Of a DNA stretch of 64,000 nt, positions 32,259 to 36,140 are shown piece after piece. Each line of letters opens with the position of its first letter. Position 1 is the stretch's first letter. The notes beneath the pieces were generated by a model. That model did not search any database and was not told the DNA's origin. It was given only the letters and a program-made list of their open reading frames with translations. This DNA is from Promethearchaeota archaeon (lineage in GTDB: Archaea > Asgardarchaeota > Thorarchaeia > Thorarchaeales > Thorarchaeaceae): contig WJMJ01000071.1 in the NCBI GenBank assembly GCA_014728035.1, positions 64,001 to 128,000 on the forward strand, in the 5' to 3' direction. A program made the translations under genes and the position numbers.

Positions 32259-33464
32259 ATGTCTGAATCAAAACGTTCTGTTCTTCCCTTTACAGCACTA
32301 GTTGGTCTCGATCGTTTGAAACTTGCTCTAATTCTAAATGGGGTCAACCCGCGAATTGGTGGAGTCTTAGTTTCAGGTCCTAAAGGTACAGGTAAAACCA
32401 CCGTAGTACGAGCTTTAGCAGACTTACTTCCTGAAGTTGATGTTATCGAAGACTGTAGGTTTGGTTGTAATCCTCGTGATATCGAATCTTTGTGTGTTGA
32501 ATGTGTGGCTAGGATATCTTCTGGTGAAGAGTTAGTCCAAAAGAAACGACCTATGCGAGTAGTAAATCTTCCACTCTCAACGACAGAAGATCGTTTGATT
32601 GGAGCTCTTGACATAGAGAGAGTTCTCCAAGAGGGGATACAAGCACTAAAACCAGGAATTCTAGCAGAAGCACATCAAAATGTACTATATGTTGATGAAG
32701 TCAATCTGCTTCCGGATCATCTGGTTGATGACCTTCTAGATGCAGCTGCTACAAAGGTAAACGTAATTGAACGAGAGGGTATTTCGATATCGCATCCTTC
32801 TAATTTCATCTTGATGGGTTCTATGAATCCAGAAGAAGGTGAACTTAGACCTCAATTATTGGATCGATTTCCATTACATGTTTCTGTTAGTTCAAATCAT
32901 TCTATTGAAGATAGAATGGAGCTTGTTCGTAGGAATTTGGAATTTGAATCCGATCCCAATGCATTCAGAGAGGAATATCGTCCATATCAAAACGAACTTC
33001 GAGAACGGATATTGAAAGCCCAAGAATTACTTCCTGATGTTATGCTCTCTGATGGTAAATTACGTGCTATTGCAATGGCTTGTGATGCTCTTGAAGTTGA
33101 TGGTGTTAGACCAGATATCATCATTAGTAAAACCGCAATCACAAATGCAGCTCTTGATGGCAGAACAGAAGTCAATCTTGATGACATGCAATTAGCAGCA
33201 CAATTGACTCTTAGTCATAGAACACGAAGAGGTGGATTGCTTGAACCTCCTTCCTCTGAAGATATCAGCACAGCTATAGCTCGAGCTGCTGATGTCAGTG
33301 AAAAGAAGGATCGCCGCAAATCACCTACTCAGGTACCTCCAGAAGAGAAGTCATCTGACGAATCTGAAAAAGGAACGCGTTTTAGTGGAGGTAAATTTGG
33401 AAGGCAATCTCGGTATGCTGTAGGCGGAAAACAAGAAGGGAAAAAGAAACAGCCAAAAAAATAA
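32259..33464 (+). CDS. Magnesium/cobalt chelatase ChlI/BchI-like AAA+ ATPase (0-frame product of a frameshifted chlD-like gene)
   Basis: GPKGTGKT, TEDRLIG, LYVDEVNLL, EREGIS, MNPEEGELRPQLLDRF, VDGVRPD, LSHR. Confidence 0.92.
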   Translation: MSESKRSVLPFTALVGLDRLKLALILNGVNPRIGGVLVSGPKGTGKTTVVRALADLLPEVDVIEDCRFGCNPRDIESLCVECVARISSGEELVQKKRPMRVVNLPLSTTEDRLIGALDIERVLQEGIQALKPGILAEAHQNVLYVDEVNLLPDHLVDDLLDAAATKVNVIEREGISISHPSNFILMGSMNPEEGELRPQLLDRFPLHVSVSSNHSIEDRMELVRRNLEFESDPNAFREEYRPYQNELRERILKAQELLPDVMLSDGKLRAIAMACDALEVDGVRPDIIISKTAITNAALDGRTEVNLDDMQLAAQLTLSHRTRRGGLLEPPSSEDISTAIARAADVSEKKDRRKSPTQVPPEEKSSDESEKGTRFSGGKFGRQSRYAVGGKQEGKKKQPKK

Positions 33465-33496
33465 GGAACCCCCGAGGTGACCCTATCAAGGGCACG
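33455..33496 (+). other. Putative programmed -1 frameshift signal (A_AAA_AAA followed by TAA, with downstream hairpin)
   Basis: CCA AAA AAA TAA. The -1 frame is open (IRNPRGDPIKGTICAI) into ORF 33509. Hairpin GTG-A-CCCT-ATCA-AGGG-CAC at 33477-33496. Confidence 0.75.
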
Positions 33497-34939
33497 ATTT
33501 GTGCTATAATGGCTATGGTCGTGTTTGGTTATCTTGGGTGGCTATTGCTGAATCCCTTCCACTTCATACTTGGTATTCCAATTGGTTCCATTCTTCCAAT
33601 ACCTATCGTCATAGTTCTCACCGTAGTCTATATTCCGATGATATACTATATTGTTCGGTATTGGTTACGTACTATGACAAAAAGGAAAAGTGGTCCAGCT
33701 AGTGGTATTGATACAGTTGAAGCTGGGCCTGCAAAAGCTGAGGATGGCGACCAATGGGGACGTGCATCAATGCCCTACAAAGCTAAGCATAAATCAAAAG
33801 TGATTGGATCAAAATCCGAGATTCGCGACCCACCAGTTGATTTAGGCTCAGAGTTCTTCACGAAAACTCCTGATTTAGATACAGGTGAACCAATATTCGA
33901 TGTTGAGGAGCTTAAGGCTAAAGCAATGATTCGTTCAAAAATCACATCTGGCGGTTGGATCAACAAAAGAGTAAGTTCACGAGGTGTCGGTTCTCTTAAA
34001 GCCTCAGAAACTGCTCAATATGGAAGACCTATACGATCTCGTCAACCGACAGGCGACTTGGGTAGTATAGACTTGCCAGCGACAATTGTTAGAGCTATAG
34101 GTAGAACTGGAAAATTAGCACCAGGTCAGCAGTTGGAAATCAAATCGTCCGATATACGTGAAAAAGTGTTTACTGGGCATACACCCTTGACTATTCTTCT
34201 CGTAATAGATGTGAGCCTATCTATGAAATCTAGTAGAAAGCAGATTCGCAAACTACTTGAAAGAATTGAAAGAGAAACACGTGGTTCAAAAGATAGAACT
34301 GGAATTGTAGCTTTCAAAGAGAGTGGAGCTATTGAAGTTCAAGCTCCAACGACAAACTGGAACAAGATATACAGAGCTCTTTCCAAACTACGGATTTCTG
34401 GACTGACCCCTCTTGCAGAAGCGGTCATGAAATCTCTGGAGATTATCAAGCGAGAACGGATGCGAAATCGCGATATTGAGCCCCTAATTGTAATTATTTC
34501 TGATTTTGCTCCAAATATTCCACTTGCTCAATCTGTTGGACCTGGTCATCTCGAATATACTCCAGTTCGTGATATAGTGCGAGCTGCTAGAATAGCGAAG
34601 AAATCAGATGTTCGTATTGCTACTGTGAATGTAGACCCATCTCAAATGAACTGGATTCGCTTTCTAAAGAGACCCTATCACGAAGCACTTGAATTGGCTA
34701 CTATGCTTCGAATGAAGAAAGAAGGTTTTGACGACCCAATCGAAACTATTCTGTCTGTTCATGAGTTTCGCCAGACCTTTGGGGCATATCTGATTGCCAA
34801 AGTAGGCGGCGGAAAATGTTTCCTTTCAAAGGAGTTATTGAAGAAGGACTCGATTCTTAGTGAATTCATATCCGGTGCTCACAGTAAATCAACTATTCGC
34901 TCGGAAGACCTTAAGGCTGCAGAGTCGTATATCACTTGA
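33461..34939 (+). CDS. ChlD-like C-terminal part: two TM helices, linker and vWA domain (-1 frame)
   Basis: IDLPATIVRA..DIREKV linker, VIDVSLSM MIDAS, GLTPLA and IISDF; hydrophobic hairpin at the N-terminus. Confidence 0.85.
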   Translation: MRNPRGDPIKGTICAIMAMVVFGYLGWLLLNPFHFILGIPIGSILPIPIVIVLTVVYIPMIYYIVRYWLRTMTKRKSGPASGIDTVEAGPAKAEDGDQWGRASMPYKAKHKSKVIGSKSEIRDPPVDLGSEFFTKTPDLDTGEPIFDVEELKAKAMIRSKITSGGWINKRVSSRGVGSLKASETAQYGRPIRSRQPTGDLGSIDLPATIVRAIGRTGKLAPGQQLEIKSSDIREKVFTGHTPLTILLVIDVSLSMKSSRKQIRKLLERIERETRGSKDRTGIVAFKESGAIEVQAPTTNWNKIYRALSKLRISGLTPLAEAVMKSLEIIKRERMRNRDIEPLIVIISDFAPNIPLAQSVGPGHLEYTPVRDIVRAARIAKKSDVRIATVNVDPSQMNWIRFLKRPYHEALELATMLRMKKEGFDDPIETILSVHEFRQTFGAYLIAKVGGGKCFLSKELLKKDSILSEFISGAHSKSTIRSEDLKAAESYIT

Positions 34940-35120: not shown

Positions 35121-36140
35121 ATGATGCGTCCCGGAAAGATTCCACCTGACTTACTAGTCAAGTATGTATTTTCCCATTTAGGTAAAATGGATGAGTCTGT
35201 AATTCTAGGTCCGCATTTGGGGGAAGATGCATCATTAATAGAGATTGGAGACTATGTCATAGCGGCAGCAACTGATCCAATTACTGGTTCTATATCTGAT
35301 GTTGGTTGGTTAGCAGTACATGTAAACGCAAATGATATTGCCACCTTTGGTATTCCCCCATCTTGGTTTCTATCATCTATTCTTCTTCCTGAAACAATCG
35401 ATGAAACATCCATCGAACAAATAATGAATCAGATGGATAGTGCAGCAAAGTCATTGGGAGTTTCTATTGCTGGAGGCCATACTGAGGTAACTACAGGGAT
35501 TGATAGACCTATTGTTGCAGGATTCATGTTAGGAATTACTAAACGCGGATGTTACGTGACATCAAGTGGAGCAAATCCTGGTGATGAAATCTTACTAACA
35601 AAATATGCTGGCTTGGAGGGGACTTCCATTCTTGCAACTGAAGGAGAAAGATATCTTAGACAAGCAATCGATTCTTCCATACTTAAAGAAGCCCAGAAGC
35701 TTAAACAACAAATAAGCGTGGTTGAAGATGGAGTACAGGCATATCGAACTGGTCATGTTACTGCCATGCACGATCCTACAGAAGGTGGTGTTGCTAATGG
35801 TCTTCATGAGATGTGTGATGCAGGTAATTTGGGATGCCGTATCAATGGCAATTCTATCCCTGTGCATGAATCTACATTCGAAATCTGTAGGTTTCTTGAC
35901 ATCGATGTTCTTCAACTTATTAGTAGTGGAAGTATGCTGATTGCATGTGATGCTGGAAAATCTAAAAAGGTAGTTGATACATTATTTTCATTTGGTATAA
36001 ACACTGTGAAAATTGGTGAGTTTTTGGAAGATTCACAAACTCGAGTTATCAATCAGCATGAACAGGAGAAATCTTTGCCTAGACCTAATACTGATGCCCT
36101 TTGGAACGCACTTAGGTTAGTAAATCAAGAAAATCCTTGA
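35121..36140 (+). CDS. AIR-synthase/PurM-like (HypE/ThiL-related) family protein
   Basis: GKIPP, GEDA, TDPI, VNANDIAT, GGHTE, HDPTEGG, SSGSML. Confidence 0.9.
   Translation: MMRPGKIPPDLLVKYVFSHLGKMDESVILGPHLGEDASLIEIGDYVIAAATDPITGSISDVGWLAVHVNANDIATFGIPPSWFLSSILLPETIDETSIEQIMNQMDSAAKSLGVSIAGGHTEVTTGIDRPIVAGFMLGITKRGCYVTSSGANPGDEILLTKYAGLEGTSILATEGERYLRQAIDSSILKEAQKLKQQISVVEDGVQAYRTGHVTAMHDPTEGGVANGLHEMCDAGNLGCRINGNSIPVHESTFEICRFLDIDVLQLISSGSMLIACDAGKSKKVVDTLFSFGINTVKIGEFLEDSQTRVINQHEQEKSLPRPNTDALWNALRLVNQENP

Follow-up and report, generated by a model that had tools for sequence, protein, structure and literature searches.

Does the tract at 32259-34939 on the forward strand of the window (the whole 64,000-nucleotide stretch of DNA that was analysed) hold two genes, for an AAA+ ATPase and a separate vWA protein, or one gene that is decoded in two ways? 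Public records give the first answer: at such loci they list a stand-alone 'VWA domain-containing protein', 488-534 aa long. We consider it highly probable that the tract is a single chlD-like gene of a Thorarchaeota (Asgard) archaeon, short by standard decoding and long by a -1 slip, in which case those records mis-annotate the loci as two genes.

Gene layout and the two reading frames

All features described here lie on the + strand. The 0-frame ORF (32259-33464, 401 aa) encodes a ChlI-type AAA+ ATPase, the short product, as judged by Pfam (Mg_chelatase, AAA_5, and AAA_lid_2), PDB (ChlI, 6l8d; E 1.8e-98), and NCBIfam (TIGR02030; 385 bits, under the cut-off of 467) comparisons. Its Walker A (32376-32399) and Walker B (32685-32699) motifs and Arg fingers are present, and its C-terminal ~60 residues form a charged, disordered tail. 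The -1-frame ORF, as called by gene callers (33509-34939, 476 aa), comprises the end of a membrane hairpin, a disordered linker of ~170 aa, a vWA domain (34193-34642; Pfam VWA_2 and VWA) whose MIDAS DxSxS (34208-34222) is intact, and, at the C-terminus, a helical extension; the vWA domain matches the BchD integrin-I domain (2x31) with an E value of 1e-6.

Direct reading of the sequence confirms how the initial annotation joined the two frames. The AAA ORF ends CCA (33453) AAA AAA TAA, and its stop codon (33462-33464) falls within the -1-frame codons ATA AGG. The vWA ORF lies in the -1 frame relative to the AAA ORF and is open from 33395, the last stop in that frame being at 33392-33394; a -1 shift at the A7 run reads K-I-R-N-P-R-G-D-P-I-K-G-T-I-C-A-I-M, running into the ATG at 33509. 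We posit that standard decoding yields a soluble ~400-aa ChlI-type ATPase ending at 33462, whereas a minority of expression events enter the -1 frame at the run of A's, either through tRNA-Lys moving back by one base on A_AAA_AAA, possibly aided by the following stop codon, or through RNA polymerase adding one extra A. The shifted product of ~880 aa would begin with that ATPase, followed by a basic linker predicted to be disordered, a two-helix membrane hairpin (N-in/C-in), a further linker, and the vWA/MIDAS domain.

Across Thorarchaeota assemblies, 58 distinct orthologous junctions were compared, and they support the proposal of one gene with two products made by a -1 shift on poly-A: rather than a continuous ORF, 55 of the 58 are out of frame by -1. 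The exceptions are informative about the product. Natural in-frame forms (the A10 loci L017 and L047 and the protein P0003) read GKKKT.K(V/I)RNPRG, colinear with the predicted slip product, and at 888 and 891 aa match its reading exactly.

The 45-nt spacer before the annotated ATG evolves as -1-frame coding sequence, with entropies of 0.47/0.26/1.52 by codon position, and the segment encoding IRNPRGDPIKGTICAI (33461-33508), which lacks a start codon, is on this sequence reachable only by the shift. This strong constraint weighs against two independent genes, in which the ATPase would end at 33462 and a TM-vWA protein would start at ATG 33509 or at an upstream I/V codon, perhaps by re-initiation, with no fusion made. 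We find that arrangement improbable, even though all orthologues keep a Met codon at 33509, the public records annotate a separate protein, and SD-less initiation is common in archaea. No SD-like motif lies 5-12 nt before the ATG, as the initial annotation had pointed out. The I/V codon is GTG in only 10 of 43 loci, and the remaining 33 carry no canonical start at this position, the window having ATA; an independent start at this codon was accordingly rejected as a general route. Moreover, the first predicted membrane helix starts at 33494, five codons ahead of the ATG, so a start at 33509 would drop the N-terminal end of the helix and its whole basic flank. Two genes would also leave the conservation of the A run at synonymous positions unexplained, and both the closest outgroups and three variants within the ingroup encode the protein in a single in-frame ORF. 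Because the Met codon is universally conserved, an extra, independently initiated TM-vWA product is possible alongside the slip product of a single gene.

The slippery run and its displacement

The initial annotation placed the slip at the A7 run (33455-33461; A_AAA_AAA in the 0 frame). This likely holds for the present genome, but the family site appears to be another, an A9-A11 run 15 nt upstream that encodes a Lys cluster before the first membrane helix. Such a run is found in 57 of the 58 junctions, the window being the sole exception; its homolog here is the remnant AAAAAGAAA (33441-33449; 0-frame AAA AAG AAA, KKK), interrupted by a single G. Within the run, the Lys codons are invariant at their third positions (entropies of 0, 0.16, and 0), and A/T runs of at least 9 are depleted 5-7x genome-wide (17 observed, ~126 expected). 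At loci where GGT precedes the run, a -1-frame TAA directly adjoins it, which confines the shift to the run. Across orthologues, the conserved slip site is the A9-A11 run and not A7. The stop is conserved as well: by encoding Arg as AGR, ~38 of 43 orthologues retain a 0-frame stop at this column, five codons past the run, and this codon choice extends to the in-frame variants.

How did the site move? Sister-species loci (L002/L021, genome G001) carry an intact A9 together with the same A7, so A7 is older than the loss of A9. It lies 15 nt downstream of the ancestral A9 and abuts the stop, and a shift at A7 leaves the junction peptide with its 8-residue spacing and its conserved Pro. Most likely, A7 is the present slip site of this genome, with the role having passed to it once A9 was broken; by alignment it is derived, a replacement confined to this genus, and no other long run is left in this genome.

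In the published Mg-chelatase cluster of frameshifted genes, which shift by -1 on poly-A, E. coli reporters built with cassettes from other species gave 10% for A7, 40% for A9, and 63% for A11 (PMC3711429). A7 is the weakest of these run lengths, which counts against recoding at this site.

Homopolymers are prone to error, and the out-of-frame junctions could reflect sequencing artefacts or DNA-level length polymorphism (phase variation by replication slippage), with the true gene in frame or switching and the assemblies giving a wrong or minority count of A's. The in-frame A10 loci and the in-frame protein would fit this idea, as would the A10 of L047 against the A9 of L045 at very short distance; with a further locus (L030, identical to L065) that needs +1 instead of -1, the two or three in-frame loci indicate that homopolymer errors or real length polymorphism do exist in the data set. 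As an account of the present gene, we judge it very unlikely. The 55 junctions come from many samples, assemblers, and years, and one junction recurs in separate metagenomes (L045, L077, and L080); the 0-frame stop is held by Arg codon choice even where no shift is needed; and the in-frame variants are scattered tips within the frameshifted clade (FastTree). In the window an in-frame reading would take an A8, yet the sequence nearby has been reshaped to form a new run, a sign of selection rather than error. When metagenome contigs were scanned for exact patterns, no same-species contig with another run length turned up.

A different concern is that the loss of A9 silenced the long product, leaving the vWA ORF on its way to becoming a pseudogene and A7 beside the stop by chance. 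The window is the only junction of the 58 without a run of at least 9, and the 10% reporter value for A7 is low, but we regard decay as scarcely credible: the vWA ORF, MIDAS, and membrane segments are all intact, A7 predates the loss of A9, and the vWA half is still under purifying selection, with pN 0.09 and pS 0.78 against the sister species (pN/pS about 0.1) and a rate relative to an outgroup equal to that of the A9-bearing sister (0.287 versus 0.293).

The downstream hairpin that the initial annotation saw at 33477-33496 is not conserved and was rejected as a stimulator. A 6-bp stem with a bulge can be drawn, beginning 15 nt past A7, but the region folds no more stably than shuffled sequence (z -1.1), RNAalifold on 42 orthologues returns no consensus pair, and covariation is absent from the pairs in question (72% paired versus 71.6% in shuffles). 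An SD-like GGAAGG upstream of the run was likewise ruled out, the underlying Q-E-G codons being free at third positions.

The anchored product and its family

Hydropathy identifies two hydrophobic segments with basic flanks in the window and in 42 of 43 orthologues, in line with the membrane prediction that the initial annotation called for: predicted helix 1, TICAIMAMVVFGYLGWLLL (33494-33550), and predicted helix 2, ILPIPIVIVLTVVYIPMIYYIV (33590-33655), the latter followed by the basic RYWLRTMTKRK. They correspond to helices 404-432 and 443-470 in an AF2 model of an in-frame orthologue. A two-helix hairpin would leave the AAA and vWA modules of the long product on the same, cytoplasmic side of the membrane, as proposed. 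The hairpin is real, but it was not gained through the shift: in-frame AAA-TM-vWA relatives in other Asgard lineages and Bathyarchaeota make it older than the frameshift and ancestral to this wider family. In a FastTree phylogeny with SH-like supports only, the Thor clade nests among AAA-TM-vWA proteins, with single in-frame ORFs as the closest outgroups; since the nearest relatives are in frame, the shift was probably gained independently of the published frameshifted chlD genes.

Members of this family have one or more hydrophobic helices between the ChlI-like AAA module and vWA, a MIDAS, and an invariant Cys-x3-Cys-x8-Cys-x2-Cys motif inside the AAA module (C67, C71, C80, and C83; 32454-32504 in the window), which alignment to 6l8d and 8osf does not find in solved ChlI/BchI. 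The initial annotation reported no ChlH/CobN gene in the window, and this extends further: PF02514 has no match anywhere in the genome (97.9% complete), nor do any of the 24 genomes examined from the family yield one, whereas controls and other Asgard families are positive. Judged by its sequences, this unnamed archaeal family is a CobN-independent, membrane-bound ChlI/ChlD branch in Asgard archaea and Bathyarchaeota.

The gene neighbourhood offers no conserved pointer to function outside the family. A downstream AIR-synthase-like gene is syntenic in all Thor loci, but so is the whole block (PALP, AAA-vWA, AIRS, and SurE), and distant AAA-TM-vWA genes have unrelated neighbours; no functional link can therefore be claimed, and the AIR-synthase-like gene was rejected as a conserved partner.

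What could the two products do? By analogy with BchI-BchD, the short and long forms, if both are made, would co-assemble through their shared AAA+ module into an AAA+/vWA machine that is tethered to the membrane and works without a CobN/ChlH large subunit. As the initial annotation proposed, recoding might set the ratio of soluble to anchored subunits, and the targets of the machine might be membrane substrates. Tentatively, it could be not a tetrapyrrole chelatase but a membrane-tethered AAA+/MIDAS remodelling or metal-delivery machine, its free/anchored stoichiometry set by poly-A slippage, mainly RNA polymerase stuttering, at a slip site that migrates along the Lys-rich linker. If so, stuttering would have left its signature in the threshold of at least 9 A's kept by 57 of 58 lineages, slip-site migration would be caught in the act in this genus, and the locus would represent the first Asgard slippage site that is both conserved and put to functional use, as well as a case in which recoding moves a protein between a soluble and a membrane-bound state. 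Archaeal recoding has been proven beyond doubt in very few genes (PMC8037382), and our literature search found no paper on recoding in Asgard archaea. With 58 junctions, natural in-frame revertants, and a moved slip site, the locus is an unusually clean comparative case, and in it a frameshift is tied to the switch between a soluble product and one anchored in the membrane.

Comparison with known systems

One close counterpart is the BchI/ChlI-BchD/ChlD motor of class I Mg-chelatase (1g8p, 6l8d, 8osf, and 2x31), to which the AAA+ module is 43-45% identical with TM-scores of 0.86-0.91. As in that motor, two polypeptides would share a common AAA module and be expected to co-assemble, and the vWA domain has a MIDAS like the BchD integrin-I domain. 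Unlike BchD/ChlD, the D-type subunit is predicted to be membrane-anchored, and the AAA module of its long form is identical to that of the active short form instead of degenerate; the Cys4 motif and the C-terminal helical extension past the vWA domain are further additions. The ChlI-type fold and the vWA MIDAS are those of a class I chelatase, whose large substrate-binding subunit is the part not found in this genome.

E. coli dnaX is recoded by a ribosomal -1 shift on A_AAA_AAG. Like dnaX, the present gene would make two proteins with a common N-terminal AAA+ module by homopolymer slippage, but the protein family differs, the shift extends the protein where in dnaX it truncates it, and neither a conserved upstream SD-like element nor a downstream hairpin stimulator accompanies the run. 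In Thermus thermophilus dnaX, transcription slips on a 9-base homopolymer, given as 9 Ts (PMC5009743). The family runs of at least 9 are as long as RNA polymerase needs for efficient slippage (PMC5009743).

Frameshifted chlD genes are the published precedent, and the initial annotation was correct to invoke them. They are reportedly also treated in a 2020 paper by Antonov in MBE, as cited in PMC9227772. Poly-A recoding of "magnesium chelatase"/chlD genes has been published (Antonov 2013 NAR, PMC3711429; Kuznetsov 2022, PMC9227772), and the A_AAA_AAR site is under purifying selection (Atkins et al. 2016 review, PMC5009743), as is the conserved A-rich site here. Shared with these genes are the single gene in which a ChlI-like AAA+ part is followed by a -1-frame vWA part without a start of its own, the A_AAA_AAR site at the end of the ChlI-like module, a short product by standard decoding and, in all probability here too, a long one by the shift, the listing as two genes in databases, and the existence of in-frame fused homologs; some carriers also have neither cobN/chlH nor the pathways for chlorophyll and B12. 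The differences are several. The published accounts of frameshifted chlD consulted here make no transmembrane mention, whereas a predicted two-helix membrane hairpin separates AAA and vWA in the long product; published archaeal cases (Methanocaldococcus and Methanococcus) are linked to CobN, whereas this one belongs to an Asgard lineage; and the score for TIGR02442, the fused ChlI-ChlD putative cobaltochelatase, falls below its cut-off of 779 (in-frame L017, 536 bits; window AAA ORF, 462; vWA ORF, 84). Frameshifted chlD genes usually have a stimulatory RNA structure downstream (PMC9227772), but none was found here, and in this genome a new A7 has become the probable slip site. The chlD slip itself is already known, and this genome is unusual only in that its slippery run has been displaced by 15 bases.

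A conserved A run between two coding frames

The chlD-like gene (32259-34939) is divided on the + strand between an AAA+ ORF, which runs from ATG 32259 for 401 aa and ends ...GKQEGKKKQPKK* with CCA AAA AAA TAA, and a vWA ORF of 476 aa in the -1 frame, from ATG 33509 to 34939. An A7 run (33455-33461) at the end of the AAA+ ORF adjoins the 0-frame stop TAA (33462-33464); the -1 frame is without a stop from 33395, and the gap in the window sequence translates as KK-IRNPRGDPIKGTICAI-M. The AAA+ product, P0001, matches Mg_chelatase, AAA_5 and AAA_lid_2 in Pfam, and the vWA product, P0002, matches VWA_2 and VWA; the ATPase part aligns with solved ChlI at E 1.8e-98 and the vWA part with the BchD integrin-I domain (2x31) at E 1e-6. 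All elements named in the initial annotation are found where it had placed them. Upstream, at a distance of 3 kb, is an ESCRT-III (Snf7) gene. Downstream, in all Thorarchaeota loci examined, is a gene for an AIR-synthase-related protein (window 35121-36140, 339 aa; top NCBIfam match HypE, 121 bits, far under the cut-off); since this synteny spans the whole block, it does not allow a functional link to the chlD-like gene to be drawn.

Orthologues of the vWA ORF occur in 22 of 24 same-family genomes at 51-85% identity. Among 58 distinct junctions (43 from species-representative genomes, 15 from metagenome contigs), 55 require a -1 shift from the AAA to the vWA frame; they include L028, whose upstream Ns make its '+1' frame call not meaningful and which we place here because its junction sequence agrees with the others. 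One locus, L030 (same assembly as L065), requires +1 because an additional one-base gap stands 8 nt before its A9 (junction near 2920-2945); either the assembly is wrong there, or this variant would need one A to be deleted in the RNA. The other two, L017 and L047, have A10 where others have A9; each is a single ORF (888 and 891 aa, respectively) that still keeps the short-product stop codon in the alternative frame. L047 shows very few differences beyond run length from its A9-bearing near-twin L045.

The A7 had been proposed as the slip site. A -1 shift on a poly-A run is supported, but the signal of the family is a longer run 15 nt upstream: A9 (the majority), A10 or A11 occupies one alignment column in all 57 junctions other than the window's, reading GGN AAA AAA AAA in the 0 frame. 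Synonymous G is never present at any Lys third position in the run (entropies 0, 0.16 and 0; third positions elsewhere have about 1.5), and the run is conserved at the nucleotide level. This is striking because A/T runs of at least 9 are strongly depleted in the window's genome (17 observed, ~126 expected from composition). At loci with GGT before the run, a -1-frame TAA abuts it and the 0-frame stop lies five codons past it, so the frame change must occur within the run; the variants A9+C, CA10G, A11G and A10GG all have, by manual count, eight residues from Gly to Arg-Asn-Pro. The 0-frame stop is kept in ~38 of 43 loci via AGR Arg codons, and its retention even in in-frame variants speaks for selection on the short product as well.

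Across the contigs of the genome, A/T homopolymers of at least 8 are strongly depleted (length 8, 111 observed and 294 expected; length 9, 12 and 89), and only a handful of runs of at least 9 fall within long ORFs, for example at C9:38667, C9:140010 and C9:170783.

The 'spacer' that separates the 0-frame stop from the ATG reads as coding sequence. Its column entropy is 0.47, 0.26 and 1.52 at -1-frame codon positions 1-3, a periodicity stronger than that downstream of the ATG; the peptide (I/V)RNP(R/Q)G(D/N)P(I/V)(K/R)GT(I/L)(C/I)A(I/V)M is kept across orthologues; and a canonical start (GTG) precedes the Met in just 10 of 43 loci, the window having ATA there. The in-frame junction peptides, GKKKTSKVRNPRG in L017 and GKKKTPGKIRRPEG in L047, are exactly those that a -1 slip would produce at other loci, GKKK|TPKKIRNPRG.

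A hairpin at 33477-33496 had been suggested to follow the slip site, and the stem can be drawn. Locally, the segment folds no better than expected (z -1.1, with equally good folds in 27 of 200 shuffles), RNAalifold over 42 orthologues predicts zero pairs, and the six named pairs form in 72% of cells, compared with 71.6% in shuffles, three of them being disrupted in 45-67% of sequences. The stem begins 15 nt after the A7 and some 35 nt after the family's A9. Fold, alignment and position together argue against it as a shift signal. Third positions of the codons preceding the run vary freely as well, and we found no conserved stimulator.

Relocation of the slip site and possible modes of slippage

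In the window the ancestral run is interrupted (GGG AAA AAG AAA, 33438-33449), and the new A7 lies 15 nt downstream of it, directly preceding the stop. The sole other species of the genus, G001, has both A9 and A7, from which it is likely that the A7 was gained first and the A9 lost later. Slippage at the A7 is predicted to yield GKKKQPKK|IRNPRGD, which has the length seen in relatives and retains the conserved Pro; slippage at the old position would yield GKK|ETAKKIRNP. The vWA half is still constrained (pN 0.09 and pS 0.78 against G001; distance to an outgroup the same in both species, 0.287 in the window and 0.293 in G001), so the long product is very probably still made. In a reporter series on chelatase cassettes, A7 gave 10%, A9 40% and A11 63% (PMC3711429), which by analogy suggests a lower long-product share in the window than in its A9-A11 relatives.

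Because one added A in the mRNA is equivalent to a -1 shift, slippage by the ribosome and by RNA polymerase would yield identical proteins. Runs of 7 or 8 occur in none of the 57 relatives, a length distribution that fits the threshold for efficient RNA polymerase slippage (PMC5009743). Polymerase slippage would also account for the survival of both A9 and A10 genotypes, and under it the '+1' locus L030 might still function. The window's A7 with its following stop would be the better match to ribosomal slippage, and we consider the two routes about evenly balanced.

Protein architecture and ancestry

An AlphaFold2 model of an in-frame orthologue (23-sequence alignment, mean pLDDT 74.6) comprises a confident ChlI-like module (residues 1-350), a disordered region holding the slip site (351-403), two helices (404-432 and 443-470), a second disordered region (471-580) and a confident vWA domain with helical extension (585-888); its Foldseek matches are BchI and ChlI (TM 0.86-0.91). 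The proposed two-helix membrane hairpin is upheld: 42 of 43 orthologues contain two hydrophobic 19-mers (mean Kyte-Doolittle 2.26 and 2.09), and the net charge is +2.6 ahead of the pair, -0.2 between its members and +4.2 beyond it, which under the positive-inside rule points to an N-in/C-in hairpin. Throughout the wider family, Walker A/B, the Arg fingers and MIDAS (D-x-S-x-S, T, D) do not vary. Within the AAA module (window 32454-32504), 23 of 23 aligned AAA-TM-vWA proteins also share an invariant Cys-x3-Cys-x8-Cys-x2-Cys motif, and the corresponding positions of solved ChlI (6l8d, 8osf) lack Cys; the motif may bind zinc or another metal in this branch specifically.

Directly before membrane helix 1, the start-less segment carries a conserved P-(R/Q)-G-(D/N)-P motif, RGD in the window (33473-33481). 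For the BchD integrin-I domain, RGD/LDV-type motifs have been put forward as ligands, and the window's RGD could be a candidate internal MIDAS ligand.

Searched in full with HMMER, 1.84 billion representatives yielded at least 22 clusters of in-frame AAA-TM-vWA proteins of 735-1060 aa, with Walker A near residue 40, 1-7 hydrophobic segments at ~370-650 and DxSxS near 550-860; their source labels are Thorarchaeota or Promethearchaeota, Hodarchaeota and Bathyarchaeota. The recoded Thorarchaeota sequences form a single clade (support 100) in a FastTree phylogeny, with in-frame membrane forms as its sister (support 99) and the three in-frame Thorarchaeota variants as scattered tips within it. These sequences indicate that the membrane hairpin predates the frameshift. 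Most relatives have an Arg/Lys cluster preceding helix 1, and since such a cluster is encoded by an A run in an AT-rich genome, this is a plausible source of the slip site.

Relation to known chelatase genes

The reported lack of ChlH/CobN extends beyond the window: a search with PF02514 gave no match in its genome, and none in the 24 genomes of the family. Other Asgard families do have PF02514, adjoining ordinary ChlD genes of 643-723 aa. The sole CobN-adjacent ChlD gene in the tree (L061) has no membrane segment; it groups with L060, from a genome without CobN, in a no-TM clade of their own. TIGR02442 and TIGR02030 scores are both under their cut-offs, which, with no large subunit, argues that the function is not that of a classical three-subunit chelatase. 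No neighbour of the Thorarchaeota locus recurs beside distant AAA-TM-vWA genes. In one distant Asgard (L059, 2291-4043), an in-frame gene with five hydrophobic segments sits after a corrinoid-binding protein and a URO-D-type methyltransferase, the sole neighbourhood seen with a tetrapyrrole-related flavour.

For 'magnesium chelatase'/chlD genes, -1 recoding on poly-A was reported with experimental tests in 2013 (PMC3711429) and covered by a 2016 review (PMC5009743); work from 2020-2022 extended it, also to carriers that lack cobN/chlH (PMC9227772). A review of archaeal recoding mentions methanococcal cases alone (PMC8211752), and our literature search found no report of recoding in Asgard archaea or of a membrane-anchored ChlD. 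The site described here is a real, conserved recoding site within a known recoded gene family; its relocation and shortening are specific to the window's genome. Compared with that known family, the Thorarchaeota are a new lineage, in which the gene has no accompanying large subunit and the long product is membrane-anchored.
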